DNA of 64,000 nucleotides from Candidatus Omnitrophota bacterium (GTDB lineage: Bacteria > Omnitrophota > Gorgyraeia > Gygaellales > Profunditerraquicolaceae), in the NCBI GenBank assembly GCA_963805065.1, contig CAWDSS010000010.1, forward strand, positions 472,359 through 536,358, read 5' to 3'. Made by a program: the position numbers and the translations under genes. Below the pieces are notes generated by a model. That model made no database searches and had not been told where the DNA came from. It was given only the letters and a program-made list of their open reading frames with translations. The first letter of the stretch is position 1, and each line of letters opens with the position of its first letter. Positions 3,201 through 64,000 of the stretch are shown piece by piece.

Positions 3201-6200
3201 CGATAAGCCTAAGAGAACCTTCGCTTTTTATAACATTAACAATTGAGCTGTCGATTGACAAAATCTTCCAATCCGTCTTTGAGGCATCTTTATCCTTATA
3301 TTCACTCTCTTTTGCACCGATAAGCATAGCTGCAATTGCGCTTTTGCCTACATTTATACGGCCGAGAAAAATTATTCCTTTGCCCTTAAATGAAAGAAGC
3401 TCTCCGACCCCTATCCAGCTTTCTCCTTTATAGCGAGGCTGAGTTAAGAGCAAATCTCTCATCGGAGAAGATGATTGAGAAGGCTCATTGGAATCCTTGC
3501 CAGAAACATCAAAATGTATTCGTGGGCCGACTCTCACCAGCTCCTCAAGGCGAAGCAACGCCAACATCTCGCTATTATAAAATAAACCGATTTTTTCATA
3601 AAAGAACGGTATGAAGCCTTTTAAGTAATTTGACATTTCCACGTATCTAGAGGTATCCATAACAATACGGCGTGTCCTTAAATCACTCCGGCAAAGTTGA
3701 ATAATATCTTCCTTAATCATCGGCCGTTTCTGTTTGATGATTTCACATTGCGCTTTAACGCCCTTAACAAGATAACCCAGCAAATCAAAAATCTCTGTTT
3801 TGTTTGCTTCGACAGGAAAGATAAAATACCCGCACGTACTAAAAATTTGTTTCAAGGACTTACGAAACATACCGAGGTACAGGAGAGAAAAAGCACATTC
3901 CATATCAATCGGCACAAGGCGACCTCCTTCAACAAACAAGATGTTCTCAGGGCTAATATCTGTATGCCCTATTAGATAATAAATAGCCAAGATGCGGCCT
4001 AATTGTTCTGCCTGATAGGGGTCAGATATCAGAGGACCCTGGGCTTTAATTCCGCTATGCTCAATATACTCCGACCACCCAAACGTACCAACCACATCAT
4101 GCTCCAAATGGAATTTTAAAGGCAGGGGATATTCGAGCCTTTCGAATAGATTTAATAAAGCCTCCTCCAACGCCACCGTGGGTGATGGTTTATATACGAT
4201 ACGACCCTCCTTACCTGCGCTATCTACAAATCCTAAAAGCTTTGTTCCGTCCGGCATATATTGCCTTTTTTTAAGACTACCACTTTGCAGCATATCGCAC
4301 CCTGCAGTATTAATAGCCATTTCTAAATTTATTTCTTTACAAAAACCATATTCCGCCGCTAAATTAGGAATTTGTCTCTGCCATAAATAGGCTTCAGGGC
4401 CCCTTGTTTTAGAATTAATAAATGTCTTCAAACCTACGGTTGTAGTCTCCTGTCTTGCGTTTGCGCTTAAAAGATCCGGAGAAAGATTTGTGAGTTCAAA
4501 ATACACATGCCTGTCCCCTATGCCTTCAATACTGTGCAAAGTCACATTTTTGTTAAACCACGGCAGGCTGCCATTCTCTAAAGTTCTTTGGAGGCGTCTG
4601 TAGAAAATTGAGCCTTTGCTCACTTTATTCTTTAGATCATTATTATTGGTAATCCTAAAAGAAGAACCCTCGGTGTCCACCGGCGAGCCGGAAACACCAA
4701 AGAGTTGTTTTTTTAGTAAGAGGGCTTGGGCTTTCTGTATTTCTTTTTCAAACACATCCGGAGCTCTTTGAGGCATGATACCTATCTTCCTACCCATTTC
4801 TCTCCAATACAGATATTTCTCATAAATCAGTTCACCTTGAAGAATTTTTCTCTCAAAATCCGTAAAAGAACTGTTTCTCTCAATAAAAAGCCGCGGTTCA
4901 GTGGAAAGCTGATCATTATCAAGAATACAAAATCTTCCATTCTTGGTTAAGCCATAATTCCAATACCATCTTTTGGCATCTATATCGTGAATACCGCGCA
5001 TCCACATCCGATGGGTGTAATCTAGAAACATTCTGGAATACGATCCGTAAATTCGATCATAAATATACTTCACTTCTTCTTTCCCTAATGCGCGCTCTCC
5101 AATTTTTCGTCTTAAATCTTCAATAACCCTATCATTAACAATCTTTCCCGCCTCCTGAAGAATAATATGACGATTAAAATGCCACGGTCTTTTTTCTATT
5201 AAAATGGCGGAACCTTCTAAAATAGACAATGCCAGATATCCCCCAAGACATTCTTTAGCCAAAATATAACCGCGCAAGACATTGTCTTCATCCCTGGACT
5301 GCGGAACCTTAACAAACACTCCCCCTGTTTCATCAGAATAATACAAATCCACCGCGGGTGCGATATCCCCTGAAGGAACAAAATTAAAATTAGCCTTTTC
5401 TATTACTCCACGGATAACTCTGTCACCCTCTTCCTTCAGGGTATGTTGTAGTTCTTCTATATCAATGCTCCATCGGGCCAATTTTTCCTTGCATCTAAGT
5501 AGGGCACCGGTCCTATACCAAAAAAGAATCTGAGAAATTCTAGATTCCATTTCTTTGGCACTCAAACCTGAAGATATTCCTTTTTCTATCACCGGTGAGC
5601 TAGTGAACTTTGTTCTAAACTGTATTCTAAAAAGAGTACCGTTAACTATATTCAAACGCTTGCTATACCTTAAAAGCCTTAAAAGACGTCCGGAATTGTC
5701 ATCTGGCCAACTATGTCTCAACCACCTTTCATAACATTCCCAGGCTTGGGAATCCTTATCTTGGTAGAAATAAATATCCCCTTTGATCTTCCATGCTTCA
5801 GGGGATAATGGATTATACTTAATGGCTTTGTCAACCGCTTCCAAAGCCCTATAAAACTGATTCAAGACTACATGGACTATGGCTTTCTCGCAATACAACC
5901 TACATAAGTCATTTTTCCTATCAGGCTTCGTTCGCATAATTGCCTCTTCAAGGCAATCTAGGGCTCTATTATTGCCACCGTGTTTACGATAAATTTTTGC
6001 AAGGCAAGATATTGGCTCTGGATTGCCCGGATCTTCTTCTTTATATTCATTGGCAATTTTCTCTGCAACATTGAGAAGTCCGGCGTTAAAGGCAGCCCAC
6101 ATGTCATCTTTTCTATATATCACGAGGTCTTGGATTTTTGTTATCGGCAAGGTGAGATAAGGAGCAGCCTGAGCACAAAAAGCGTTTCCTAAACTGATTA

Positions 6201-21200: not shown

Positions 21201-24200
21201 ACATCTCTTCTAATCTACTCGTGGGGCTACTAGAGGCCGCTAATAATATTGCGCTATTATTTTGGCCAAGTTTAGTTATCGCACTGCTGCCTGAACGCAG
21301 GAACACAGACTCAGGGAAAAAGTCTCCGGCGCGCAGAACAGCGACAATCGCGCTGATTTCACGGAACTTATCTATATCAGTATTATCGGGGCGCCGCGTG
21401 CCGCCCATAACATTCATCAGTATGTCTCTTGCAGTTTTCTCAACTTTACTAATCAATTCATGAAGTCTTTCAAGTAAAGGCAAAGCATATTCGTCTAAAT
21501 TATCTTTCTTAATGACAGGGACATCAGAAAATAATGGGAATAAATCTTTAAGCTTGAATAAAAGTTCTAGCTGCAGTTTAATGGTAATCAAACCATCTAT
21601 CATCTTTTTATCTTGTTGCATCAGTACGATAACATCGCCTACTGATTCCAATAAATAGTTGAGCTGATTGCGTACTGCATTAAACTTATGAACATCGTCC
21701 GTAGGCTTAAGCAGATAAACTGCCTGTAATATTGCCAAATAACTTTCCCGGATCTCTATGGTATCCAAACCCGCCTTATCCAAATCTATTACTAAACTTT
21801 CAAACAAGTTGTTCATTTTCTGGTAAGATAGGTCATTACGAATATCCATCGGGCTGCTGCCGGACAAAGAAACAATAGTTTTTAGAGAAAGGGCTGCTGC
21901 GAGATTCGAATCCCAACCTGCCACGGAAGATGGATTCTCCCGAGCAGCCATTCTCATGTCCTGTCCAGCCAAGAACAGAAATAATCCTTTCAATAAAGCA
22001 AGCGCCGCTGCGGAAAGGGACTCCACCAGCCACGGAAGGAAATCCACTTTTATATTCCGCAGCGACGCTAATTCTAAACCGCTTTCTATCTTAATGGGCG
22101 AACTGATGCTGCATAAGATAAGTCTGGAATTTGCTACGGATGCTGAAACTGAGTTCGGGCCCAAGATCAACCCAAGAACCCGCAGAACTCCTTCCTTGAA
22201 CTTTACCATTATGCTGAATAAAGAATTTGTAGCTGGAACCCCAGTCATGGTATTTCGCAAGTACAAAAATCCCCGCTTTGCTAAGCTTAATCCTATCGAG
22301 TTCAAGCATCTGCCAATTAAACATGGGACACCTCCTGTTTGGTCTTGCTGCCTTAAAGGCGAAGAAACTTTGTTTTCTGACGGTGGCTGGACGGCAATCT
22401 TGGTAAAGCTATCCTTATCCACCTCAGCTTGCGTAAATTGTAACTTACTTATTTTATAGCCGTTATCTTTGAGAATTCCTATGGCTTGGTTTAGACAAGC
22501 CTTGGCTTCCTCAATAGACATGTCAACACTCTCTGCTAACCGATAAAATGTTACCCATCTTCTAATCTCTCCGGTATCATCTTCAACAGCCTTGGACTTT
22601 AAAATGATGTAGTCTATGAACTCTACAATTGCAAGGTTATTGCGGAACTCTTTAATCTCATCCAAAATACCTTCAGCTATTCCTTTAACGTTATTTAAAT
22701 AATCATTTAATCTTTTTATCACGCTTTTACGATTTTCGTAGACATATAGCAGGAGCGCCTTGAATTCATCAGAGTGTTTTAATGCTCTGATACCTCCTAA
22801 TGCCCGGTTTTCGAGTAGATACTCAAAGGACCTTCTACCATCTTGTTGGTGTTCTTTGCTAAGCTTAGAGTTGTATTTTTTGGCTACTGCCGATATGCCT
22901 AAAGCTTTACGTAAGTATCTTACGCGTGGAAGGGGCTTATCTCTTTTACCTATCCGGATAATCCCCTTTTCATTGCGGCCCATATAGCGTTGCGAAGTAA
23001 AAATTCTCATTACAATATCTGCCAAAGACTGACGGAGTTCCTTCATGGTCGGATTATTTTCCAGAGGAGAACCGGTGACTGAGAGCTCTTTTTCTAAATC
23101 CCAAATCCGTTCCTTAAGATTTATATTGCGGTCACGATAAGACAATATTCTAAGGATTAGCGTGTCTTGGACAGAATTAAGCGCCTTTTTTCCTTTGCTG
23201 CGCTTAAAATTAGCAGCCAACATTTTTCTAATTTCTTTGTTCCTTGCAATTTGATATTCGTAATACTTTATCCAAGCTCTTATATATTCAGCGGTAATGG
23301 GTTCGGGGGTCTTTTCAGCAATGTATTCTAGTAATGCTTTATTTACGCGCCGTTCATTTTGTTCTTTAATACTTTTAAGATACTCTGCAATCTTGGCCGC
23401 TTCAGCCGGTACAGTATTGGATTGTCCTGTTGTTTCTTCATTTACAGGAGAAGATGATATTTCTTCATCTAAGCTTACCACTTCAAAACTGTTTTCATAA
23501 ACGCGGACAAGGTTATGTTGCCGGTCAAACAATGCTCCTACCTGCCTGGCGCAACGAATTTCTTGTTCTGTGTAAGGGCACACATCGCATCTTATATAGC
23601 CACGGTTAATCAATGCCGCCTTTAAGGCATGTCTTTCAGCCTGTATTTCTTTATATATAGAAGAATAGTGAGGTTCTTCCGGGTCTACTCCGGGAAATTG
23701 TATTGATACATCTAAATCAGATCCTTGCTTTTCCCTGCCATCAGCATAGCTGCCAAGGACTAAAACCGGGATTGGAAAGAATATGCCTTTTAGTTCTAAT
23801 TCCTCAATCGCATCTTGAGTATTTCTTACAATATTCTTTATACGCTTCGAAGTTACTATTATCTCCGTTTTCTTTTGAGCCGGGGAGCTGGTCTGATTTT
23901 TTCGATAGGGCCTGCGCTTATGCTCTATCCTGCCATTTCTTACCTGATGCTCGATACTCTTTACTGTCCAAGGATTGCCCCTCCTGGTTTTATATCCTAG
24001 TTCATTAAGCTTATCTACAATCTGCTGAGACGTCTTTCCTTTCTTACCTTTACCTTTTTGGATTGGTTTACGTATTGATGATATTAGTGCAAGAGTTTCA
24101 TCTAATTTAACAAAATCTGCCCTATTCCATTCTAGTTTACTTAATTCAAAGCGCACAGTTCCTTCAGTTATCTTTTTTGACTCTTTTAATTCACCTCTTG

Positions 24201-27200
24201 ATTCTTCTGCAATCAAACCTGTAAGTACGCCTGCCAGCTCTGCATTAGTCATCTCTATAAAGTTCTCTAAGAGAAAACGCAATCTCCGGCCATTCCAAAT
24301 CTTAATTCCTATAAGAAAGCCTTCCGCTTCCAAAATTTCAAAAGCCATTACATACTGTTCAGGCGTATATTCTTTCCCAATAACGCGCCTGAGACATTCA
24401 ACTGTAAACTCATGCGCTCTTAATTGCCATTTGCCTCTGGCTCTTGATACTTCATGCAAGGCTTTACCTTGGACCAGAATACTTCCCCCAAAATTAGAAT
24501 CAAGCACGCCCCCAAACTCCTTGCTGTTATTTAACCTTTTAGCTGGTGAGCTGGAGCCCCGGATAATTGGCTCAGAAACATTAGATCCACCTGCAATGCT
24601 ATCTTTCTTACTACGAGTCTTATGTTTTAACATAGCCTTCCAGATAATTCCTTTGTATGGATTCATCAGGATTATACTAATGGGAGGTACGAATAACAAA
24701 ACCACAGTCAATATAATTATGTATGAGGGATTTCCGCCCGTCAGGAATGCATAATCTCTGGCCTGAATGTCATAAGCCAGATACATGTGCAGAAAATCCA
24801 TCATATAATAATGCCCTAAGGAAAGACCAATGATAAAAGCAGAGAGATATGTTCTGGTTTTTCGCAACTTGTAACCTATTAAGAACAAAAGGAAACTGGA
24901 GGCAAGGGCCTTGAGGCCACTAAAACTCACCATAAACTCTGCCGAGAATCCACAAACAACTTCTAATAAAGGTATCTCGATACGTGCTATGGAATTTCTT
25001 AAAATGGCCAGGGAAGCAGGAAAGAAAGTTATAATACTCATCCATGCAAAATCTGCAACCGCTACACTCCACACGCCAATGATTTCCCACATAGACTTCT
25101 TTCTCATGCGCGTTAGCGACGCATAATCATAGATGTCATTCTTTTGATTATCTCTACTCAAAACACTGGAAAGCAGATGTAATACTAGAACAGAAGAGTA
25201 AACTGTAAACAGTAAGGTGACGCTACCAATGAACGCCCAAGAACTGTAAGCTGCTGCGCCCATAAGGAGAAGAGGCGAAATAAAGAGTGCCGTCAAGATA
25301 ACCCCCTGCAAACGGCGAGTAATCATATCTTCACGTAATCTATTGTTTTTAACTCCGGGCGTAAACTGCTTATCTGAAAGTGTCTCCCCAGATGTAGATT
25401 TCATATCTCTTAATGCAATATCTAGTTTGGTTTGTATGTATGTTTTGGATTTTATTAGGATAATACCCAAGGGAGGTATAACTAATAAAGTTAAGCTCAA
25501 CAGTAGACAGTAAAATAAATCGTTGCTTGTTAAAATTTGGTAGTCTCCCCATCCAAAATAACTGTAAATAACAGTTGAAGACATTTGCATAAAATTCATA
25601 ATATAATAATGCCCCAGAGAAAAAGCCATCAAGAAAACAGAAAGACGTGACTTGGTTTTTTGCAACTTGTAACCTAGCAAGAATAAAAGTAGGCTGAAAG
25701 CCATTGTTCCCAGAACCCCAGGAGCTATCCAGAATAATTTCATAACGGTATTATGGTCAAAAATGCTAAAAATCCTATAGGGGTGTTCAAAATCACTAGG
25801 ACCAGCTCCCCCTCCTGCATCCTCAATTAGGTATTTATAAAGAGCCGTTATTATATCCTGTCCTTTGATTCGCGCTTCTTTATATGCATCCAGTTTCAAA
25901 AGGAAAAGGTCTATGGGAGGATGATACGCAAGACTCGAGCCCAACCAATGTCCTAATTCATGGAAGAAAACCCCAATCCCTATACCCAATTGGTCAATTC
26001 CTACTGCTAACATCCCCAAGGATGCCCAGATATATTTCTTTTGCGATTTCGCTATTCCATGCTTTCCGGCCGTGCTCTCTAAGGTAATATTTTCTTGATA
26101 ATTATTTTCAAATTTGAAAAATGCACGTAACGTCAAATAAGAAAATGGAATCATCATAAATAACCCAATACCTTCAGCATAATGCCACATACTGTCAAAT
26201 GACCATCCGCAATAAGTATCTACAGCGGACACTATAATCTGAGTTACTATGAATGCCATAACAGCATAAGTCCACTGACGCCAAGGCGGAATAACTTCAT
26301 TTAGGCTTAGGTATGGGGATTTCTGGAAGATGCTCTTTAATTTTGCATATTTGGCCGGAGAACTGGAGGACTGCGCCTCTTGACTTTTGTTTAGATTAGC
26401 CGCTGCAGCAGAAACTACCGCCACCAGCCACGGAAGGTCAATAGTTCCCTCTTCCTGCAGCGGCTTAACCAAAAATAACCCGCCAGAGAGTAGAATAATA
26501 TACTCCCCACCAGCCACGGAAGGTAAAGTATATATCTCGATAACCTCTCCAGCGGGTAATCTGATACGTATAAATAATTCTAAAGGCGAACTAGAATTAT
26601 GTATTTTTAACGTAAGCCTCTTGCCTTCCAAAGTGTTGAACGTCACATCATAAATCTGGACAGCAAGGTCTGTGAGAATACGCTTATATAGGTATTCTAA
26701 TGAGAGGCGGCTACGGTATCCCTCAAGGTATCCTCTCCATACGTTAGAATTTGAAGTAAATAAATCTAAGTACCCCTGAACCGTCTTTTTGGGATAATGC
26801 AGGCTATACCATTCAGCAATCTTTGTCATTGCCCCTTCGCCAGTTGGCACAAGGAACTGACCCTTGGCAAGTTTTTTCAAACTTTCATCATTGTCCGCAG
26901 CATCTTTTAAAACGTTGCCCCAATCAGGATTACCCGAAGCATCGAATCCTCCAGCAAAGTTAATTTCGACTGTCATTTTAGAAATTACTAATTCTATTGG
27001 CGTTATTTCAGATAAGAAATTAATTATATTGGGCCTTATGGCCGGCGGGACACCCCTACGCCACTGATAATTCGCTACACCGCTAAGCAAATGAAGTAGC
27101 GTTTTTTCTTCAGACGAAATTATTCCTTTATCAGAAAGCTGGGAGATAAATTGTAATTTGTCCCAGGCGCTTAGGTTTTCAAATTTGAGGTTTTCAATAA

Positions 27201-39200: not shown

Positions 39201-42200
39201 CCTTACCGTAGCCTTGAACATATTGCTGTACATCAAGACGGCTGCCAAGCAAGATTGCGTCTTTGGCTCCCAGATAGCTCATTGCTTCAGCTATCTCTGA
39301 AATGCTCATTTCCAGCTTATCTTGTGGATATCCGGACATTGATAAGATGATAATATTTCCTTCTTTATTGGCTCCTATGGCAGAAAAGCTCATCGTATCC
39401 GCTTCAGGGTTCCAGCTAACGGAATTCCCGTCAAGACCCTTTATATTCTCTTTTAGTAAATGGTATTTAAATTCGCTGTTTTCAATCAGAAGCGGCCCCC
39501 CTATTGCAAATTTAATCCCGGAAATATTCTCCTGAGGAATGCCATTTGCAAAGTTAACGGCAAAAAGATGATTTTCTGCTTTCTCTAAAATGAAGAAGTA
39601 ATGAGTGCCTTCGAGTAATTGCACTGAATCCTGCATAAGGCCTGGCGCTGTCTTGGAAATAACTTTTCCATTTATGATTATGGCTGTATTCGCCTCCCAA
39701 AAGTTACTCTGATGGCCGTTAACCGCCAAAACCATATTTAACTTATACACTAGATTATGGAGTCTGACAAATTCATCTATTATATAGCCCGGGAAATGCA
39801 CAAAGCGCTTGTTAAGTTGAAAGGCTAGCTTTGGAGTCTGGGCCCACTTGCTGAAATCATATTTTGGCGCTACCAAGTTATACCAAAGCTTCAGGCTGAC
39901 TTTGTTCAAATCTACTACGATACCCCTTCCTTCAGCAAAAGTAGTCTTATTTTCAAAGATAACCTTTGAAACTTCTAAACCATTAATATGATTATCATAA
40001 GGATAAACTTTTAAGCCGGACAAAACCGGGCTGGATGTCTCATGCGAAGAGCTAAGCTTATCAAATTCAACTACAGCTTTCTGAAATTCTAATTTGTGCA
40101 TTGCAATTTGCTTTTGAGTTAATCTGAATCGTTGGCTCAGACCACGCGCTAATTTTTCCAAATCTTCTTTCTTAAAATACTGTTCTGCAAATGCTATGTT
40201 TAAGGGTAATAATTGATCGAATTGAGACATAACTTCGGTTTTAATCTTTTTGGTAAGAGATTCGTCTTCCGCTATGGTGTCCTCGTTTTTCAACCACATT
40301 AAAACATCCATTACAGCTTCTTTTCTGGCTTGAGTCTTTTGTATCTGGTCCAAACTAGTATATAAACTTATTAATTCTTCCCGAAGTTTGGCTAACCCAT
40401 TTTTCGTTTCCTTAATCGACTTATTAAGTTCTGCAAGCTTATTTGTCTTGGTTGCAATAATACGTCTCAACTCAGAACGCCTTAAACTATTCTGCCTCTT
40501 TTCATTTATTCTGCTGATTGCTGCCTTAATAGATAAAGAGATTTCTGTTGACTTTTCAGCCATCGGGCTGCTGCCCTGACCGTCATCTGTAATGTTAGGA
40601 TAGGATTTTCCAAAAAGATTAAATGCAATCATCGTTTTGGCCATCTCTAAGAATTCTTCATATCTCTTTAATCCTCTTTCTACCTGTCTTATGTATTCTT
40701 CTATTCCTTCTCCTTTATAAATACTGGGGTGTTTCAAATTAGCCAGGTTTTGTTCCGCTATCTTAAGACTATCAATAAAACTTGCCAACACCGCTTTAGC
40801 TTCCCCGATTTCAAGGGCAAATAACAATTCCTTTTCTAAAACAAATAGGTTGGGATGAGGAACTGCTGAGCGAAGCTCTTCATCCAGAAATCCATATTTT
40901 CTAATTAATGCTGCTACCGCATAGTGTAACAGGTTTGAGTACGCTCTATCGGCATAACTAATTTTCTTCTCATAACCAAAAATCATGGGCTTATGGAAGA
41001 AGATAAACCCGTAATCAGGCTCATACCAATTCAACTTCGTAAGTAAAGCCTCGGCTACTTCGCCGCCAAATTCGCTAAGCAGCCCTTCGTAATACTGTGG
41101 CGTAACAGTATTGGGTTGATGAGTCATGATATATATAATCAAATTATTTAAATAATTATTCTGTTTCTCTGTATTATATTGCGCACAAACAATTTTGGAG
41201 GCTTGATTGAATTGCTTTGCATTAAATTCAATAACTTTAAGCTCCAATAAGCTAGCCAATCTATGGGCAAACTCAGAAGAAGTAATTTTTCTATTCTGAA
41301 TGTTAATAATCCCTATTGCTTCAATGGCTTGGTCAATTCTTATCTCAATGTCGTCCAGGGTAATGGGGCTTGTGGCTTCCTTGCTTTCATACTTCTGCGG
41401 ATTAATCAGCATATCGAGGTAATCGGGATGATCCATGATGTAACGGTAGCCCACATAAGGCAGATAAGCAAGACCAGTTATAGGGCCTTCTTTCTTGACA
41501 AGGTTGGTAAGGGCATTACGGATATCGGTTGCTGAGGCAAGCCCTACGCCTTTTAAGAAAGCATGATCCACGGCGGTAGTAATAGGCACGGGTCTTTCTC
41601 CTCGCTGAATGAACAAGACTTTAATCGAATGAACCTCTTTGTTGAAGCCATATTGGTTAGCCTTGGACTCAGGCAATTCTTCAAACTTCTGGATAGTATC
41701 TAGCGTAGGCTCCACGCCATAGTAAGCCGCCCAATTCTTGTAATCCTCTGTGTCTTTACGCATCTCCTGGGGTGCCTGGATAGAGCCTTTGATAATCGTG
41801 CCGTCCGTAAGGACAAACGGTATATTTTTGCCGTTTTCATCCTTCTCCATTTTATTCTCAGCCCATCTGTTATAATGGTCACCACCAACAAGATAAAATG
41901 CCTTAATGGGTTGTTTGGGATTCAGAGATAAAATACGGAAGGTGTCATATTCGGCGTCGTAGCTGACGTTTTCAGAATAGCCGAATAACGGCGCAAAAAT
42001 TTTCATTTGCTGCTCGGAGAGTTCATAGCGGTAAGGCTCTGTTACTTTTAAAATTTTCTTACGCCAATCCTTGCCGCTCTGGATATCGTAGTAGACTTTG
42101 TCTACTCTTTGCTCTGCAATCGCCTTGAAGCCAATGAGAAAATGATCCCACTGCGGCGGATTAGCTGCAATACCGAAGAGGGCAAGGTTTAAGACTCTGT

Positions 42201-45200
42201 CAACCACCACAACATCTTTTTCTCTACCGGTGGTGTAAATATTCACCTGTGGATTAACTACGCCTTGGATAAGATTAGTAGCAATCTGCCTTAAGAAGTT
42301 TTCAGCATGGGACAGGCGTATTGCAAACTCTTTGTAGCTAAGATCGAGGCCGATTACTGAGGCCATGTGTTTCATGTCATCAACGATAAACTCATATAGA
42401 TCTTTGGTCACTGGGTGATCGTAGAGGGTAATGGGGCTTGTGGCTTCCTTGCTTTCATACTTCTGCGGATTAATCAGCATATCGAGGTAATCGGGATGAT
42501 CCATGATGTAACGGTAGCCCACATAAGGCAGATAAGCAAGACCAGTTATAGGGCCTTCTTTCTTGACAAGGTTGGTAAGGGCATTACGGATATCGGTTGC
42601 TGAGGCAAGCCCTACGCCTTTTAAGAAAGCATGATCCACGGCGGTAGTAATAGGCACGGGTCTTTCTCCTCGCTGAATGAACAAGACTTTAATCGAATGA
42701 ACCTCTTTGTTGAAGCCATATTGGTTAGCCTTGGACTCAGGCAATTCTTCAAACTTCTGGATAGTATCTAGCGTAGGCTCCACGCCATAGTAAGCCGCCC
42801 AATTCTTGTAATCCTCTGTGTCTTTACGCATCTCCTGGGGTGCCTGGATAGAGCCTTTGATAATCGTGCCGTCCGTAAGGACAAACGGTATATTTTTGCC
42901 GTTTTCATCCTTCTCCATTTTATTCTCAGCCCATCTGTTATAATGGTCACCACCAACAAGATAAAATGCCTTAATGGGTTGTTTGGGATTCAGAGATAAA
43001 ATACGGAAGGTGTCATATTCGGCGTCGTAGCTGACGTTTTCAGAATAGCCGAATAACGGCGCAAAAATTTTCATTTGCTGCTCGGAGAGTTCATAGCGGT
43101 AAGGCTCTGTTACTTTTAAAATTTTCTTACGCCAATCCTTGCCGCTCTGGATATCGTAGTAGACTTTGTCTACTCTTTGCTCTGCAATCGCCTTGAAGCC
43201 AATGAGAAAATGATCCCACTGCGGCGGATTAGCTGCAATACCGAAGAGGGCAAGGTTTAAGACTCTGTCAACCACCACAACATCTTTTTCTCTACCGGTG
43301 GTGTAAATATTCACCTGTGGATTAACTACGCCTTGGATAAGATTAGTAGCAATCTGCCTTAAGAAGTTTTCAGCATGGGACAGGCGTATTGCAAACTCTT
43401 TGTAGCTAAGATCGAGGCCGATTACTGAGGCCATGTGTTTCATGTCATCAACGATAAACTCATATAGATCTTTGGTCACTGGGTGATCGTAGAGGGTAAT
43501 GGGGGAAGAAACCTTTCCTTCTTCTATCACAAAATTACCAAACGGATTATTTTCACTGGCACGTCTGGAATTATCAGCATAGATCTTCCATGTTTCACCC
43601 ATATCGGTTGAAAGCCGAGCAGTAAGTTCAAGCCTCTGGCCTGCTTTAATACTAATATATTTCTTGAAGACAATATTATGCCCCTTCAATTCACCGGGGA
43701 ACATCTGTCCGAGACTTTCCATCTCTGTAGCTTGACTGCATCCTATAAGCTCAGCCTGATAAACACCACCCATTGCTAAAGACATCATTGAGGTATAATT
43801 GTAAATTAACGCAGGCGATACATACGCTTCGACTGTTACTTCGTAAACATCTGATTTAAATTCTGTGACGTGCATATTCCCTAGCCAAACATTTTCAGGA
43901 TTGAAAATCTTATTGCTTTCTAAAGTCCACCAAAATTCAATATTGTAAAGATCAATTTCCACTATATGGTCTGTCAATTCCTCATAGGCTATCTCTTCCG
44001 TGGGCTCTAGAATAGAATCTGTTCCACGCAAACCTATCGCAACCTTACCTAACAGGGTGTGAGAAATTATTCCACCGAACTTTGTCAATAATAGAATCTC
44101 TTCCGCACCAATATGGCCTTTCCCCCACTCATCTTTAACACTGTTTCTACCGTACCCGTAAACGAGATGGGCTATGACGCGGCGAATGCCGTCTTTTCTT
44201 AACTTTCTAAACAATTCAACATGAAGCTTAAAACCTAACCCCTGGCCTTGATAGTCGTTATCCACAGCAGTTGAATATAAATTGTATTCTTTTATGGCAC
44301 CGTGATAACCGAGATAAGTAGCGATAATATAACCTACCAGTTTACCTTTACCTGTACGTGCCGTAAATGTAACGGTATCATTGTGATCCTGCGTCTCGAG
44401 CAAATCATTGACCAAATTATCATTTTTGTCTGTTGTCGGAAGAGAGGCTAGCGCGGCATAATCTTTTGTGCGGTCTAAGCGTTCTGCTTTTATAATAATA
44501 TTTTCGGTGGGAGATGAGGCGGAAAATTCCTCAGGCTGAGCTCTGGTTAATGCGGTATTGCCTAACCCGCGCGCTTCCAGATATTGCTCTGTGCCTTGAA
44601 ACACTACTGCTGAACCGGATAAATCCTTACCTATATTATGTACTCTGTCATGTGCTATACGTTCTAAAATATTGGCTAATGCCAGCGAATTAATTGTGTT
44701 ATTAGCATTATCCTGCGCTGGAATCGTTTTTTCTTGTGTCTCATCAGCCAATGGGCTGCCGGATTTTCCTTCCCTTCCCTCTAATTGCCTCTTTAATTCA
44801 TCAATTTTCTCTGTGGCGTTTTCTGTAGTAAAACCATTAATGAAACTTAAAGCTTCAGAATAATGAGGAATAATTACTTCTATCCCCTTCCGAATTTTAT
44901 AGATATAGGGATCTGGTTCCATATGACTACCAATATAGATTTGTCTATAAATAGGAATTTCCTCACCATAGTAACAATCAGCAGAAGTTCGATCGTATCC
45001 AATAAATTCGCCATTTATATAATCCTTTACTTCTCTTTCACAGCGTTCAGGTACTTCTATAAAGATTCCTTCAGAATCTTCTCGGAGCAATTTACTAATA
45101 TATTGGATCATCGTGTTGATATCGACGCCTTTTTTCTTAAGTTCAAATAGTTTAGGAATAGAGCACCTTAGAAAATCCTTATAACCAAATTCATAACAAT

Positions 45201-48200
45201 ATTTCTTATGCTTTTTTTCTTCGCTGTATTCTGTATGTAAGTCTTCTAGTAAATCTTCATATCTTAAATACCATACATCTGCTATGCCTTTGATTAATTC
45301 TAAATAACCTATCAATTCTTCAAGTGTTTCTAATTCAGCTAGTAATGCAGGTATAAAACCTCCCTGGAAAGTAATCCGGTAGAAGAAAGATTGATATTTG
45401 GCTAAATCAGTTGCAAAATCTTCGAGCTTATCCAATCCTTGAGCATATTTAGAAATATTGTCTTTTGACCATTTAGCTAGGCTAGGTACGGCATGCATTA
45501 AGACGCAGCATGGCAATAGCCCTTTATCTATTAATTTAATACCCAAATTAAATGAAAGTTTTAAAACCTCATTACTTTTTTCAAAATTACTACTAACTCT
45601 TATCAATTCTTTAACTATTATTGTAATATTATCTAAGGAGAATTTCTTTTGCTCGAGTTTCTGTTTAAATAAAGCCAAGATGTTCAAAGGCTCTCTGTTA
45701 TAATCTAATTCTGCTATCTTAAGTAATGAGTCTGCTGCGTATAAATCCTCTGTTTCCACTGTTATTTTAATCAAGGAATCTACTGAATCATAACCAATTG
45801 CAGTTAATACATGAAAAACTCTATTAGGATATCGACAATTCTTTGATTTGAGTGCACTTATGAGTGGATTGATTGCGCGTTTCCTTTGTTTAATAAGAAT
45901 ATTCGTCAGATCTGAGCGATTCCCTTCAAAGTCATTAACCATGTACTTTACTAAAAACTCTATATCTGGAATCGAGAGGTTCTGATATTCCATACGAGAG
46001 TAATAACGTAGTATTTTGTTAAGTTTCTTTTGTTCTTTTCTTCGTTCTTTATAATCTTTTGGTTGCAATACAACATCACTAACTATAGCTAGTAATATAC
46101 CTGTAACAAGAGTTAGTCCTAACCCGGAAGAAAGTACTATATCATAAGTTGAACATCCTCCAATTAAAGATAATAAACTAAACAAAAGTAAGATATATAT
46201 ACTTCTATAATTAATAATTTTATTTAATAAGCTTATTTTAATTGACTTGCTATAAGATTTATTAATCAAAGCGCAGAGCGTTTCCTTAGCTTTAATTTCA
46301 TCATATCCGGCTTTATAAAGCAAGGCTTCTTTGGCTAAGTCAGGTTGAGTGGTATATAGTGCTACGGTGAGTTCTGTTTGCTTTTGTGAAGCTTCCCGGT
46401 CTTTCTTTTGCGCTTTGAGAGCAAAGATTTCTTTTAAGGCTGCATGATTAGCTTTGGCTAAGTCTGGGGCACGGACTTTAAGATATACTAATTCATTCTC
46501 CAATACCTTCTTATATGCTTCTTTGGTCCAATCGTATAACATCTCTTTAGCTTTGGCTTCATTGTAACTGGCTTTATAAAGCAAGGCTTCTTTGGCTAAG
46601 TCAGGTTGAGTGGTATATAGTGCTACGGTGAGTTCTGTTTGCTTTTGTGAAGCTTCCCGGTCTTTCTTTTGCGCTTTGAGAGCAAAGATTTCTTTTAAGG
46701 CTGCATGATTAGCTTTGGCTAAGTCTGGGGCACGGACTTTAAGATATACTAATTCATTCTCCAATACCTTCTTATATGCTTCTTTGGTCCAATCGTATAA
46801 CATCTCTTTAGCTTTGGCTTCATTGTAACTGGCTTTATAAAGCAAGGCTTCTTTGGCTAAGTCAGGTTGAGTGGTATATAGTGCTACGGTGAGTTCTGTT
46901 TGCTTTTGTGAAGCTTCCCGGTCTTTCTTTTGCGCTTTGAGAGCAAAGATTTCTTTTAAGGCTGCATGATTAGCTTTGGCTAAGTCTGGGGCCTTAGCTT
47001 TGATGTTCCCTAGTTCGCTCTCCATTAATTTTCTATATGCCTCTTCAGTCCAAGTGTAGAGCATTTCTTTGGCCTTAGCTTCATCATAGCCGGATTTGTA
47101 GAGCAGGGCTTCCTGGAAAAGCACGAGTTGATCTTTCAGGTTATGTATAGTTAAAACCAATTCATAGAAAAGCTTTTTGGCTTTATCTAGATTGTTATCA
47201 GCATTGTCCAACATAAGCGCCTGAGCGGATTGAGAAGCTTCATTCCAAATCTCCTCTATGAGCGCTTGTTTATATTTATTGAGGGCGTCTTTAAATACCT
47301 TTTCTTTTGCTTTCTTTTGATCATTATTTGTAGCTTCTAAGGCAGCGGCTTTGGTATTTTCGTCAGCAGTATTCCATGTTTGGTCTATTAAGCCCTGAGG
47401 TGCTTTTTCTCTATCAAGAGCTTCTTTTAATTCCCTTGCGTGCGTCCAGGCAAAATTGTGGGCATGGTTAAAAGCAGCTATCAATTTAGTTTTCTCAGAT
47501 TTGTTTAAATCTAGGAGTTTATTCCTAAAAGCGGCCATAAAGAAGATACCATTATCCCAAAGTTGAGTAGCAACTTCTTGTTTTTGGACAGTAACGTGCT
47601 GTTTGTTTTCTTTCAGGCTAAAGATTTTCGCTAAGCTGGCGTGATTTGTTTTAGCCAAGTCTAAAGTTTCATCTATAATGTTGTCTAACTCATCTTCCAT
47701 CATCTTCCTATATGCCTCTTCAGTCCAGGCATAGAGCATTTCTTTGGCTTGAATTTCATCATAGCTGGATTTGTAGAGCAGGGCTTCTTTGGCTAAGTCA
47801 GGTTGAGTGGTATATAGTGCTACGGTGAGTTCTGTTTGCTTTTGTGAAACTTGCTGATCTTGCTGTTGCGCTTGGAGAGAAAGGATTTCTGCTAAGCTGG
47901 CGTGGTTTTTACTAGCTAAGCCTAAAGTACGCATCTTAATATCAAATAACTCATTCTCCATGACCTTCCTATATGCCTGCTCAATCCAATCGTATAGCAT
48001 TTCTTTGGCTTGAGTTTCATCATAGCCAGCTTTATAGAGTAAGGCTTCCTGGGATAAGAGAGTCTGGATGTTATATAGTGTTTCAGCGAGTCCTGTTTGC
48101 TTTTGTGAAGCTTGCTGCTCCTGCTTTTGCGCTTTGAAAGAGAAGATTTCTTTTAGGGCTGCGTGATTAGTCTTGGCTAAGTCTAGGGTTTTAGATGTGA

Positions 48201-51200
48201 TGTTATCTAGCTCACTTTCCATTAACTTCCTATATGCCTCTTCAGTCCAAGTATAGAGCATTTCTTTGGCTTGAGTTTCATCATAGCCGGCTTTGTAGAG
48301 CAAGGCCTCTTTGGATAAGACAGCTAAATTGTTGTATAGTGCTGCAGTGAATTCTGTTTGCTTTTGCGAATCTTGCTGGTTTTGCTGTTGAGCTTTGAGA
48401 GAGAAGATTTCAGCTAAGGTGAAATGATTTGCTTTGGCTAACTTATCAGCTTCAAAGCGGATAATATTTGCTTCTCTTTCCATATGAATTATATATGAGT
48501 TATAAATTAACGTGTCCAAATCTCCATAATTACCTTTTAAATCCTCGAACAACTGTTCTTCCTGTGTGGTTAACCTTTCTTCAATATGATTCTTAAGATA
48601 ATCTCGCACTTCACTAACTCCCAGACCCACGAGGTTACCAAGAACTATATTGTCTATTTTTCTATAAATCGGCAACTCAGTGCCATAACCAAGATATTTG
48701 TACACAACACCTATCTCTTCTTCTTTGCCTGGGAATAAAGGAGCTTGCTCTTTAACTAAAACCATGCCTTTTCCGTCATTCCAATGCGTTAATGTATCTA
48801 ACGCCTCTATAAACGCCCTTTCAGTTTCCTTTTGACTGATATCAATACCCAGCTTACCGGCAAGCTGCGCTATTGTGTAAACCATATAAATTGGAGGATG
48901 CCTATTAAAATATTCATCGAGCTTGCCTAATAATTCATTCTTGAGCTTGCTGAAGCGCCTTGCCTTTAGAATGCTACTGATTGGGCCAATAGTTAATAAG
49001 CCAATCCATAAATAGGAACTCCAAATTTCATGGATACCCAAGAAATTAATGAGATTTGAGCCGAAAAGCAAGGCTATAACCGATACTAAACCAGACCATG
49101 CATACCATTTATATTTTCCTGCATTTTCAACAATAGGATTCCAGACTGCATCAATAGTTGCCATTCCAACTTTACCGCCTTGGATATATGCCCGATAAAC
49201 GTTGCTATCAGGGAAGTATTTTCTCTTAACTGGTTTTAATGGTATTAAACCAAATAACCTTACGCCTTTATAAGCGAAGGTTTCTTTGCCTACTTTTAGC
49301 TCTTCTCCACTCCCTGTCTTTACGCCAAATCCTAAAATAAACAAGTCCTTCATAGCTTTTCTGAACATAAACCAACCACCAATAACCATCTCTATAACCC
49401 TCTCTCTGCGGTGTGCTTCCAATACCAACCAGCTAGCCAGTATCAATAAAGTAGGGATAGGCACAAATAAGCTATAAACACTTAATAAGAGAATGGTGGC
49501 AGTATCAGCAGATGTTTGCCTGCCGGTTAATGCGCTGCCATTTATTAAATCTTTAACCTTCAATATAAACCATACGCCTAATATGCCTGCCAAAAAGTAA
49601 TATCCTAAAACTAGGGATACTATTAAGCCTGTGGTACCCATAACCAACGGGACTACCTTACTTGAAGTGCGTGGTTCGGTATCCAGAGGATTATAAATAA
49701 ACATACCGCCGACCCAGTTATACATCATCAGGATGAACAAAGGAGCAACAAATAAGAATAGACTAGGTTCGTATGCCGCGAGCGTAAAAAGTAGTAGTAA
49801 AACGGGGGCTGCGGGCCGCGCTCCAAAGATATGGCGTAACAGTAAAACTCCATAAGTTTCTTTCTTGCTAGCCGGCTCTCTTGTTGATACCCTGAAATCA
49901 AAGAAACCCTTGAGGCCTCTTCTAAGGGCTGAATTGTCATACATCGGGATAAGCAGGGTAAAAATCCAGAAATAACCCGGATCATAGGCAGTGCCTTTAA
50001 TGAATGACAGTAGCCCTTTAGGTGAGCCATATTTTAAATTAAGCATGGCAACAGTTGCAAAGTTGATAGCCATAGCCATGCTGTAACCGGCTAATACAAA
50101 CATCCAATTAATTGGGAACGCATACGCAGGATTAATAGGCAAGACAACTGCAAATATATTAAATATGACATTAGTAATAAGGACTGCCAATTTCAAGCCA
50201 TAGAACGAACCCGGGGTATTTTGGTTATCATATTTTTCATTTAAAGGAATATTCGGGCTGACATTGAAACGCACAGCGCCTAACATATCCTCTAACTCTT
50301 CCTGGTCGGCAATATATTTCTCTTCCGGGTCAGCATTAAGGCCAACACTTTCACCCTTGCCGCCATAGAAATTAATCGCCTGAGTATAATACACTGAAGG
50401 GCCTTCGTTACGCATCATCAACACAAAATAAGCATCTTCTGCTACCAATGTATAAGGCAGGCAGATTGCCGGCATATTCCAAACATACTTATAGTCTGAG
50501 GCTATATTGGCTTTGGGTTTACGCGGCCTTACCTGTAAATCTACTTTAGCGCCGCCGCCTCTCCCGTAGAAAAGGACCATACCTTTCAGGGACTTCACCA
50601 ACTGCACCATAAAAGTCCAGGTAGTTTCAGAGATTTTAAACCCTCGCCTGACTATGGTGGCATCCGGGCTTATTACATCCATTGCCATAAGTAACACGCC
50701 ATATTCAGGATGATTAAAATGAGAAATAACATTCGGTAAGAACATACATCTACTAAATGTACGGTGATGTGCTGCGTCTCCATAAAGCGCAAACGAAGTT
50801 AAATACCTTAAGTTCAATACCCAGCCCATGGCTTTGTATTGTGCATTTGCCTCTCCAAAACGTAACCTGCCGGTCATCATTGCTGCTCGCCAGGCGTCAG
50901 ATGCTTGAGTTGGAAAGCTATCAAAATCAGGATGAATATTTGCCCATAGTATCAGATGCTTTTTTAACAACTCAGATATGCCCGTAAGATTACCTTGAAG
51001 CAGATTATCAATCTTAGTGCCATCTTGAAGTTCTTCTTGTAATGATAAATACTCCTCTTTTTTCTTTTCTAATTTTTCTCTATCTTCGGGTTTTTGTGGC
51101 TTTGCTAAGGCTTTATTACATTTTTCTATCTCTTTATTTATTAATCGAGATAATTCTTTTTCTCCCCTATATACCCGGATTAAACTCTCCAACAAAGTCA

Positions 51201-60200: not shown

Positions 60201-63200
60201 TCTCAATAAATGTATTGATGTATTTGGGGATGAAGAAAGGTTGATGGGTAGCATCGTAATATACCCAATTATTATTTCCATACTCATACTCTTTAACCTG
60301 GCTGTAGCCGATACGGGAATCTAATTTCTCCCTGAGAATTCTGCCGTTATCAGCTGCAAAGGTTTGCTCTGTGCTGTATAAAAGCCTTCCGTCCGGCAGG
60401 AATAAATATTGCCTATGGGTAGTCTCCTGATCAGCCTGATTTATGGGCGTTTCTCTGACGCTTATAGAGCCAATCTTACTGGCAAACGCTATGAGATCGC
60501 TTTCATGCGCGAATTTGCTTCGAAGCTCTCTTAAATTATTGGCTTCGCCGATAAAGCTCACGCTCAAACGGGCAACACCATCTGGTTGCATCTTTGTTGA
60601 TATGCTGTAGCCGTCATAGAAGAAGATGGTTACTACACCGTTTATAATCCTGTATGAGAAGCCGACTTTTTCTGCCAAAGGATTAACTCGTGATTCTCCC
60701 AATTTCTCAAGCCTGGCCTGTATAGTTTCCCAGTTTGCGCGCATCTTATATACCACTTCTAAATATGTAACTGCATCCGGAAATCCTGCTTTGCCTTCAG
60801 CTCTCTGCCGGATAAGCCCAGAGATATCAAGTAAGAAATTTTCTACTCTTGCCAGGTTCTTGCCTTGAGGATGTTTAAGATCAATGCCGAAACGGCCATC
60901 ATAAGTAATGCCTAAGTTATAGAAGAAGTTAACAGCCTCGGCATAATAATAATTTGAGTTAATTTCTCTTAAGAGCTTAATCATGCCATTTAAAACAGCA
61001 ATATATTCTTGCGGCGTCTTCCAGAAATCGGTTGATTTCGAGCCAATCTTATCTGCGACATCAGCAATCTTTTGTCTTAATGTGGGGGAATATCTGGCAT
61101 TGCCGCGATAAGGAATGCCTTGCAAACCATAAACCTCTCTAATCTTGTCAAAGGCTCCTCCTTGTTCCATTGCTATCTGAATCTTGAGATTATTTAATAC
61201 ATCCTGGATAGTCTTGGGTTGGCTTAAGGTATCAATAACTGTACAGCCGGTAAGCACATCCAAACGCTTAACCTGTGTCTTGCCGATGTTGGCCACGGCA
61301 TCAAACACGATCTGCCTTAACACAGCGCTCTTGGTAGAGACGCCGATTTTCTCATCAGTGGTGCCTAAGAATTTCACGCCTGCTAAGTCTGTGTAGAGTA
61401 AACGTACGGCATCCAGGCCGCCCTGCTGATTGAAGCTGGCAGCATTCTTGTAGCTATTGATGATATCCTGTAAGGTCAGGGCTGTATCTAAGGTGGTAGT
61501 GATCACAGCGCCGGTGTCGATGTCTACACCCTTGATGGAGGTCTTGCCGATGTTGGCCACGGCATCAAACACGATCTGCCTTAACACAGCGCTCTTGGTA
61601 GAGACGCCGATTTTCTCATCAGTGGTGCCTAAGAATTTCACGCCTGCTAAGTCTGTGTAGAGTAAACGTACGGCATCCAGGCCGCCCTGCTGATTGAAGC
61701 TGGCAGCATTCTTGTAGCTATTGATGATATCCTGTAAGGTCAGGGCTGTATCTAAGGTGGTAGTGATCACAGCGCCGGTGTCGATGTCTACACCCTTGAT
61801 GGAGGTCTTGCCGATGTTGGCCACGGCATCAAACACGATCTGCCTTAACACAGCGCTCTTGGTAGAGACGCCGATTTTCTCATCAGTGGTGCCTAAGAAT
61901 TTCACGCCTGCTAAGTCTGTGTAGAGTAAACGTACGGCATCCAGGCCGCCCTGCTGATTGAAGCTGGCAGCATTCTTGTAGCTATTGATGATATCCTGTA
62001 AGGTCAGGGCTGTATCTAAGGTGGTAGTGATCACAGCGCCGGTGTCGATGTCTACACCCTTGATGGAGGTCTTGCCGATGTTGGCCACGGCATCAAACAC
62101 GATCTGCCTTAACACAGCGCTCTTGGTAGAGACGCCGATTTTCTCATCAGTGGTGCCTAAGAATTTCACGCCTGCTAAGTCTGTGTAGAGTAAACGTACG
62201 GCATCCAGGCCGCCCTGCTGATTGAAGCTGGCAGCATTCTTGTAGCTATTGATGATATCCTGTAAGGTCAGGGCTGTATCTAAGGTGGTAGTGATCACAG
62301 CGCCGGTGTCGATGTCTACACCCTTGATGGAGGTCTTGCCGATGTTGGCCACGGCATCAAACACGATCTGCCTTAACACAGCGCTCTTGGTAGAGACGCC
62401 GATTTTCTCATCAGTGGTGCCTAAGAATTTCACGCCTGCTAAGTCTGTGTAGAGTAAACGTACGGCATCCAGGCCGCCCTGCTGATTGAAGCTGGCAGCA
62501 TTCTTGTAGCTATTGATGATATCCTGTAAGGTCAGGGCTGTATCTAAGGTGGTAGTGATCACAGCGCCGGTGTCGATGTCTACACCCTTGATGGAGGTCT
62601 TGCCGATGTTGGCCACGGCATCAAACACGATCTGCCTTAACACAGCGCTCTTGGTAGAGACGCCGATTTTCTCATCAGTGGTGCCTAAGAATTTCACGCC
62701 TGCTAAGTCTGTGTAGAGTAAACGTACGGCATCCAGGCCGCCCTGCTGATTGAAGCTGGCAGCATTCTTGTAGCTATTGATGATATCCTGTAAGGTCAGG
62801 GCTGTATCTAAGGTGGTAGTGATCACAGCGCCGGTGTCGATGTCTACACCCTTGATGGAGGTCTTGCCGATGTTGGCCACGGCATCAAACACGATCTGCC
62901 TTAACACAGCGCTCTTGGTAGAGACGCCGATTTTCTCATCAGTGGTGCCTAAGAATTTCACGCCTGCTAAGTCTGTGTAGAGTAAACGTACGGCATCCAG
63001 GCCGCCCTGCTGATTGAAGCTGGCAGCATTCTTGTAGCTATTGATGATATCCTGTAAGGTCAGGGCTGTATCTAAGGTGGTAGTGATCACAGCGCCGGTG
63101 TCGATGTCTACACCCTTGATGGAGGTCTTGCCGATGTTGGCCACGGCATCAAACACGATCTGCCTTAACACAGCGCTCTTGGTAGAGACGCCGATTTTCT

Positions 63201-63999: not shown

Positions 64000-64000
64000 G
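61090..64000 (-). repeat. 88-aa (264-bp) tandem repeat array: at least 10 identical units plus one degenerate terminal unit, continuing past the window end
   Basis: The unit is TLQDIINSYKNAASFNQQGGLDAVRLLYTDLAGVKFLGTTDEKIGVSTKSAVLRQIVFDAVANIGKTSIKGVDIDTGAVITTTLDTAL. DNA identity with period 264 runs from 61277 to 64000. Nine identical antisense shadow ORFs in the track, spaced 264 nt apart, confirm this. The degenerate unit lies at about 61090-61276. Confidence 0.95.

Follow-up and report, generated by a model that had tools for sequence, protein, structure and literature searches.

A predicted membrane module in a giant reading frame

The element described here is a predicted membrane module with a HExxH motif, encoded in a 64,000-nucleotide stretch (positions 472,359 to 536,358, hereafter the window) of contig CAWDSS010000010.1 from the Candidatus Omnitrophota bacterium assembly GCA_963805065.1. 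One frame on the minus strand of the window, of at least 21,333 codons (1-63999), is free of stops; the remaining minus-strand frames contain 2,072 and 1,543 of them. Since this open reading frame (ORF) is open at both ends, the window is an internal portion of a giant gene that runs past both of them; no other ORF longer than 200 amino acids (aa) is present in any frame of the window.

The module lies on the minus strand at 24544-26355, and the plus-strand translation of the same interval, which is full of stops, was ruled out as an alternative reading. Its edges coincide exactly with two serine-proline junctions, SSSSP and GSSSP, and hydropathy picks out 12 hydrophobic segments within aa 12577-13112 of the minus-strand translation. 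A preliminary description of the window, made from its letters and ORF translations, had reported a polytopic module of about 600 aa with FFHELGHWLGS at a helix boundary. This proved accurate in size, position and motif placement, and the strand, which had been left unstated, is now fixed as minus. The features referred to below are as follows (TM, transmembrane).

24544-26355, minus strand: membrane module, aa 12549-13152, 604 aa, 12 predicted TM helices, probably N-in/C-in (hydropathy, charge bias)
25420-26355, minus strand: first six-TM half, aa 12549-12860, bearing the HExxH (MAFFT, segment prediction)
24544-25419, minus strand: second six-TM half, aa 12861-13152, collinear with the first, without HExxH and with a 15-residue gap opposite HELGHWLGSSLAYHP (alignment)
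25936-25968, minus strand: FFHELGHWLGS, zincin-type motif (H12680, E12681, H12684) at the outer end of TM3 (translation, pattern scan)
25732-25962, minus strand: loop 3, 77 aa, K+R 7, D+E 10, net acidic, predicted periplasmic (loop charge counts)
25441-25734, minus strand: repeat copy A, aa 12756-12853, comprising TM4, GYKLQKTKSR, TM5 (SLGHYY), a GWGDY loop and TM6 (BLASTP/self-comparison)
24652-24939, minus strand: repeat copy B, aa 13021-13116, comprising TM10, GYKLRKTRTY, TM11 (SLGHYY), an ARDY loop and TM12 (BLASTP/self-comparison)
25303-25452, minus strand: central loop between the halves, 50 aa, K/R-rich (K+R 11), predicted cytoplasmic (loop charge counts)
26356-26370, minus strand: upstream junction SSSSP, then AKYAK (sequence)
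24544-24558, minus strand: downstream junction GSSSP, then AKRLN (sequence)
1-63999, minus strand: giant multi-enzyme, multi-TM ORF housing the module (stop counts, Pfam domains, TM clusters)

The zincin-type motif and its chance expectation

FFHELGHWLGS directly follows a hydrophobic helix (ASLGMLAVGIDQLGIGIGVFF), with HELGH at the outer end of TM3, immediately after its hydrophobic stretch and not within it. No other HExxH occurs anywhere in the 21,333 aa of the ORF. A single bare HExxH is not significant alone, because 0.36 are expected per ORF of this composition. That chance level favours one of the two main accounts of the module, namely that it is a plain membrane anchor or insertion module with an incidental, non-catalytic HExxH, in which the other conserved elements (GYKLxKT, SLGHYY and DY, see below) would act in helix packing or interaction. 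An argument the other way comes from the zincin pattern in its extended form, [GSTALIVN]-x-x-HE-[LIVMFYW]-x-H-x-[LIVMFYWGSPQ] (PROSITE PS00142): composition predicts 0.016 occurrences per ORF, and there is one match, VFFHELGHWL. The motif also has, as HE-x-G-H, a Gly that is typical in many families of zincins, and it extends to HExxHxxG. A full signature with this Gly and hydrophobic flanks is suggestive of a match beyond chance, and is harder to accommodate in a plain anchor.

The module consists of two collinear six-helix halves

The pattern GYKLxKTxxxLSxFxxxxSLGHYY occurs exactly twice in the ORF, at aa 12776 and 13042. It had been described as an internal duplication of a unit of about 35 aa; the pattern is there in both places, but the repeated unit is considerably larger. 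The last three helices of each half align over 98 aa at 41% identity (BLASTP E 2e-20), and in a MAFFT alignment the two six-helix halves are collinear from end to end. Their N-terminal thirds (the first three helices) align weakly, with a z-score of ∼3.1 that lies within the range of the best shuffles. Residues that do not differ between the copies lie in a short basic loop (GYKLxKT), in TM5 and TM11 (SLGHYY), in the next loop (DY…LT) and in TM6 and TM12 (PP). Self-comparison of the whole ORF revealed no other TM cluster related to the module.

The motif itself is confined to one copy. The 15 residues HELGHWLGSSLAYHP of copy 1 stand opposite a gap in copy 2 (MAFFT; …GIGVFF, then HELGH…, then PIDL in copy 1 versus …SIITFF, the gap, then PASL in copy 2), and therefore the second half has no HExxH at all. 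That copy 2 shares the architecture without the motif fits a plain anchor; conversely, an anchor would have no need for a conserved 6+6 unit with invariant polar residues (the TM5 His, the outer-loop Asp and the KxxKT cytoplasmic loop). The duplicated region was also considered as an aspartyl intramembrane protease, as GxGD and YD motifs recall presenilin and prepilin-peptidase. A GWGD is present in copy 1 (window 25546-25557, aa 12816-12819) and a YD in copy 2. This candidate was rejected: both motifs are situated in loops, neither copy has the two together, and their frequency is that expected by chance.

Charge bias predicts a periplasmic motif and a cytoplasmic central loop

Topology was derived by the positive-inside rule from K+R counts in the loops, which alternate perfectly between K/R-rich and K/R-poor. 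Loops assigned as 'in' contain 42 K+R in 191 residues and those assigned as 'out' contain 10 in 160, with 7 of these 10 in the long loop 3. From this bias we infer that the module is N-in/C-in, with the 50-aa basic central loop in the cytoplasm. The model agrees with the alignment of TM2, the least hydrophobic of the first three helices, with the strongly hydrophobic TM8. It agrees as well with the ∼2,800 residues upstream of the module, which hold SAM methyltransferase and GT5/GT1 glycogen-synthase-like domains (enzymes using cytoplasmic cofactors) and no convincing TM helix.

In this arrangement, HELGH would stand at the periplasmic end of TM3 and be followed by a net-acidic periplasmic loop of 77 aa. 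Loop 3, which includes the HExxH, also contains H12693, E12708, E12726, E12738, H12739, D12748 and H12749, and beyond it H12797 (TM5) and D12819 (loop 5) are predicted to share the outer side with H12680, H12684 and the acidic loop. Given these same-side His, Glu and Asp residues in the outer loops and TM5, candidates for a third zinc ligand exist. Both SSSP junctions that flank the module, on the other hand, are predicted to be cytoplasmic.

The same layout raises the possibility of a 6+6-helix transporter-like or metal-binding module, arranged like MFS or dimeric CDF/ZIP proteins, in which the His/Glu/His cluster, the TM5 His and the loop-5 Asp would make up a periplasmic metal or substrate site and not a hydrolytic centre. 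Twelve TM helices as two parallel six-TM repeats, with both termini inside and a long basic central cytoplasmic loop, are the classic layout of secondary transporters. The invariant polar residues within TM5 and TM11 and the sugar-metabolising enzymes in neighbouring modules would suit such a function. Nevertheless, no MFS, Cation_efflux, ZIP or other transporter model matched at E up to 10, and the metal-type motif is found in one of the two repeats only. We regard a transporter-like or metal-binding module as unlikely.

Family, homologue and structure searches

Family searches with profile hidden Markov models (HMMs) covered the whole module (Pfam) and five sub-pieces, and NCBIfam, PHROGs and PADLOC were also run. 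The whole module matched nothing in Pfam at E up to 10, and PHROGs and PADLOC gave nothing relevant for it. A 71-aa piece around the motif produced sub-threshold Pfam and NCBIfam matches to the zinc-site positions of metallopeptidases, each 16-20 residues long (Metallopep, E 0.083; Reprolysin_3, 0.095; M6, 0.07; Peptidase_M50, 0.14). Off-target noise in these searches comprised holin, DUF4325 and acetolactate synthase models.

The preliminary description had compared the module with M48- and M50-type proteases and proposed HMM searches for M48, M50, M56 and CPBP. The canonical zincin-type motif, on a predicted helix that continues a TM segment, bears out part of that comparison, but no feature tested, whether profile or partner motif, places the module in any of these families. 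At best, Peptidase_M50 (PF02163) aligned to the 71-aa piece with 12 bits against a cut-off of 27.2, over profile positions 4-19 of 221, and had no match in the whole module; no LDG, DG or N..P....DG occurs in the 604 aa. M48 enzymes are defined by a third-ligand Glu in a downstream helix, of the ExxAD type. PF01435 had no match at E up to 10 in the module or its pieces, and no Glu of this type lies on the correct side, the only E..[AS]D being in the central loop (aa 12872), which is predicted to be cytoplasmic. For M56, neither PF05569, at E up to 10 with module or pieces, nor NCBIfam gave a match. In the CPBP/M79 group (Rce1, Abi), successive TM helices carry the motifs EExxxR, FxxxH and HxxxN/D. 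The module has no EE...[RK] and only one F...H and one H...[ND], which are not in the family arrangement, and PF02517 had no Pfam match. HExxHxxGxxH is likewise absent from the module. Two further candidates were examined and dismissed: a desaturase/AlkB His-box protein (HELGH resembles His box 1), since no HxxHH boxes are present, and a rhomboid, since the module has no GxSG.

No homologue was recovered in the searches made. A word-indexed search of 5.8 billion proteins found no relative of the module or of the 1.5 kaa (kaa, 1,000 aa) around it, and an exhaustive phmmer search of 1.84 billion representative proteins gave 0 matches to the module at E up to 1e-3, in databases without the published catalogue of 5,761 giant proteins of at least 10 kaa (Nielsen & Lui 2026). 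DNA-level peptide-pattern scans of genome and metagenome collections found nothing for the module or the two-copy alignment, and tblastn against plasmids and phages returned nothing relevant. Among PDB sequences there was no match for the module or a two-copy profile, and the motif piece gave two chance matches, neither of them a protease. A giant relative was also sought through the GAF-HD-GYP region, the best-conserved part of the ORF, which matched ordinary proteins of 1-2 kaa from mixed phyla at 31-53% identity and no giant one. Literature on the HELGH motif yielded noise only.

Structure prediction with AlphaFold2 gave all-helical, unusable models, both for the module alone (confidence score pLDDT 42.8) and for the first half with the second as its sole aligned sequence (pLDDT 42.7). 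The motif segment is helical and continuous with TM3 in both, at this low confidence (pLDDT ∼43), and Foldseek against the PDB with a model of pLDDT ∼43 gave no match below E 0.8 and no protease.

A possible divergent membrane zincin or a possible membrane anchor

Tentatively, we favour reading the module as a divergent membrane zincin that faces the periplasm and whose duplicate half is inactive. It would be a protein-sized (604 aa) integral-membrane part of a giant multi-enzyme chain anchored in the inner membrane, built of two tandem six-helix units with both ends in the cytoplasm. In the first unit, HELGH would form a metal-binding and catalytic motif in a helix that extends TM3 to the periplasmic membrane surface, giving a zinc metallopeptidase, embedded in the membrane and highly divergent, with its active site open on the periplasmic side. 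The second unit would be a catalytically dead duplicate acting as structural partner (a pseudo-dimer), and the substrates would be exported proteins or periplasmic loops, not cytoplasmic SSP junctions.

Several observations weigh against this reading. The chance estimate is post hoc, as protease-like motifs had already been scanned for over 21 kaa, and the case for a zincin depends on ∼10 residues. No definite third zinc ligand was identified among the residues of the module, and the extramembrane loop past the motif, at only ∼64 aa, is short for a classical zincin fold. The best-kept parts of the two copies (GYKLxKT, SLGHYY, DY and PP) leave out the HExxH, which is located in an indel absent from copy 2. 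There is no family-level similarity to proteases in Pfam, NCBIfam, PHROGs, PADLOC or PDB sequences, the collections searched hold no homologue against which conservation of the H, E and H could be checked, and structure prediction was unusable.

A plain anchor, as one of many TM clusters that would hold such multi-enzyme giants at the inner membrane, is nearly as likely as a divergent zincin. Besides the chance level and the motif-free second copy, it draws on the empty homology and family searches, on the at least eight other TM clusters of the ORF, and on the fact that TM clusters making up ∼2% of residues are the rule in Omnitrophota giants.

Recurrent SSP junctions in the giant ORF

The ORF that houses the module encodes ∼15 distinct Pfam domains overall, among them GNAT, NAGPA, HEAT, four SAM-methyltransferase domains, Glyco_transf_5, GT1, PGM domain III, GAF plus HD-GYP, TPR, DUF4135 and HAD. 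With the at least eight TM clusters beyond the module (at least nine overall), it is by definition a giant multi-enzyme membrane protein (at least 10 kaa, many enzyme Pfam domains, TM helices between them). The 64-kb window contains no rRNA, tRNA or marker gene.

Of all tripeptides in the ORF, SSP exceeds expectation the most: it occurs 35 times where 2.7 are expected, and 200 shuffles reached at most 10. Its sites all lie within aa 6495-21248 (window ∼250-44520, minus strand) and none in the first 6,494 aa, at a spacing of 42-1,359 aa that is roughly protein-sized. The consensus is [GTS]-S-S-P-[MVIL], and the broader [STGA]SP[MVIL] occurs 44 times against 2.8 expected. None of the 35 sites falls inside the 15 Pfam envelopes, where 4.8 were expected. 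In 28 of the 35 cases SSP is followed by M, V, I or L, with Met at 20% versus 1.8% ORF-wide, and the codon after SSP is ATG seven times and GTG five times. The serine codons mix AGY and TCN, and AGC AGC CCG ATG recurs; since the serine codons vary in this way, the constraint acts on the protein. The junction motif is real and striking, and it looks like either a selected linker through which whole proteins were joined head-to-tail or a cleavage or modification site.

The form SSPA(K/Q), a local junction variant, is confined to three successive junctions around the module: SSPAKYAK (26356-26370), SSPAKRLN (24544-24558) and SSPAQKKT (∼23881-23889, aa 13371).

The preliminary description had put the module forward as the only protease-like element in the window and, speculatively and if the junctions are cleavage sites, a candidate for cleaving them. 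The first statement holds, in that no other protease family is found among the Pfam domains of the window; the ORF runs beyond both of its ends, however, and further proteases may be encoded there. The second is disfavoured, because HExxH is predicted to be periplasmic and the flanking junctions cytoplasmic. A cis-acting protease that processes the giant polypeptide at SSP sites would nonetheless have some attractions: the junction motif exists, it avoids domain envelopes, and the hydrophobic residue that mostly follows it fits a hydrophobic P1' preference, which is common among zincins (thermolysin-like enzymes). Whether and where giant proteins are cleaved is, besides, an open question in the literature. 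Yet both flanking junctions sit in K/R-rich segments, those beside the SAM-methyltransferase, GT5/GT1, HAD, HD-GYP and GNAT modules should be cytoplasmic too, and there is no sign that junctions are cut at all. Moreover, peptidase domains of types C39 and S8 that the cited giant-protein literature proposes for processing, at cleavage points that it leaves unknown, could be encoded elsewhere in the gene; neither type is among the Pfam domains of the window, and the ORF extends past it. Processing in cis by this module is, in our estimate, very improbable.

It is also very unlikely, by our estimate, that the module is the founding member of a new pseudo-dimeric (6+6 TM) zincin family in a giant polyprotein, which it would process at [GTS]-S-S-P/[MVIL] junctions or at exported loops. 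If true, this would provide the first pair of protease and cleavage site for giant bacterial proteins. For bacterial giant proteins of 10-150 kaa, the cited literature leaves open whether they exist as single chains or cut pieces, and knows of no cleavage points. That question would become testable with a protease that is built into the chain and matched by a recurring junction motif. As it stands, the proposed protease is one short motif in an orphan membrane module that probably faces the wrong compartment. The protease observation was a reasonable lead that could not be substantiated, and the module should not yet count as a processing enzyme. What interest the finding has comes almost wholly from the junction motif and the surrounding giant gene, and neither that motif nor the HExxH membrane module is described in the preprints of Nielsen & Lui 2026 and West-Roberts et al. 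2023.

Other repeats and junction-associated segments

Some TM clusters start right after a junction, at ∼39100 (aa 8299) and ∼11400 (aa 17530) (SSPILSIFNNIVPLL… and SSPIAFHASTFVVPLLGVV…), as though what follows had once been a separate membrane protein with the junction ahead of its N-terminus. A 356-aa segment is present in tandem duplicate at window 41254-43524 (aa 6826-7582), with 86-100% protein identity. As both copies begin at an (S/T)SPITLYDHP junction, a whole junction-delimited module has undergone recent duplication.

Two further repeat families were observed. An 87-aa (261-bp) family at window 46309-46992 and 47621-48441 (aa ∼5165-5928) has ∼9 copies that are 55-96% identical as protein, 2.6 copies among them being 100% identical as DNA, and a two-helix TM cluster lies just downstream. 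At 61277-64000, a 264-bp tandem repeat (88-aa unit, …TDEKIGVSTKSAVLRQIVFDAVANIGKTSIKGVDIDTGAV…) has 10.3 copies at 100% identity and runs off the window end. Copies this perfect suggest either very recent expansion or collapse/expansion in the assembly. The G+C content climbs to 0.44-0.51 across the final 6 kb of the window.

Comparison with known systems

The site-2 proteases (S2Ps; M50, PF02163; RseP, SpoIVFB), like the module, are polytopic and have HE[LF]GH attached directly to a hydrophobic helix; the sole Pfam alignment to M50 spans exactly this motif. What defines S2Ps is a three-TM core in which HExxH and LDG (NxxPxxxxDG) lie on separate TM segments (PMC10202637). The module departs from them in having no LDG or DG, in its sub-threshold score, in a 6+6 TM architecture and in a motif predicted at the periplasmic end of a helix instead of inside the bilayer.

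The M48 membrane zincins (Ste24/ZMPSTE24, HtpX; PF01435) are also polytopic helical proteins, and the hexapeptide HELGHW of the module is identical to the ZMPSTE24 zinc site. The module differs from them in having no PF01435 match, no ExxAD-type Glu on the same side and a motif on the other predicted side of the membrane. With the metzincin zinc site HExxHxxGxxH (M10/M12), it shares HExxHxxG, which HELGHWLG reproduces, and the weak Reprolysin_3 match. Its next His, however, stands at +9 from the second His and not at +6 (HELGHWLGSSLAYH), and the module has no soluble catalytic domain and no HMM support past ∼20 residues.

The ORF as a whole resembles the 'multi-enzyme metabolic cluster' giants of Omnitrophota (Nielsen & Lui 2026; West-Roberts et al. 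2023). It exceeds 21 kaa, has periodic TM clusters and shares the Pfam repertoire of that class (PF08241, PF00583, PF13419, HD, PF08323, PF00534, PF02880, HEAT and TPR). In the Omnitrophota catalogue, sequence singletons make up 80% of the long proteins and Pfam-dark ones 15%, TM helices account for ∼2% of residues with most of the chain predicted to be cytoplasmic, and peptidase modules are a recognised component. The ORF is sequence-unique, as are 80% of these giants. Given so many singletons and the recurrent TM helices, an orphan TM module is, by this comparison, ordinary for such giant genes.

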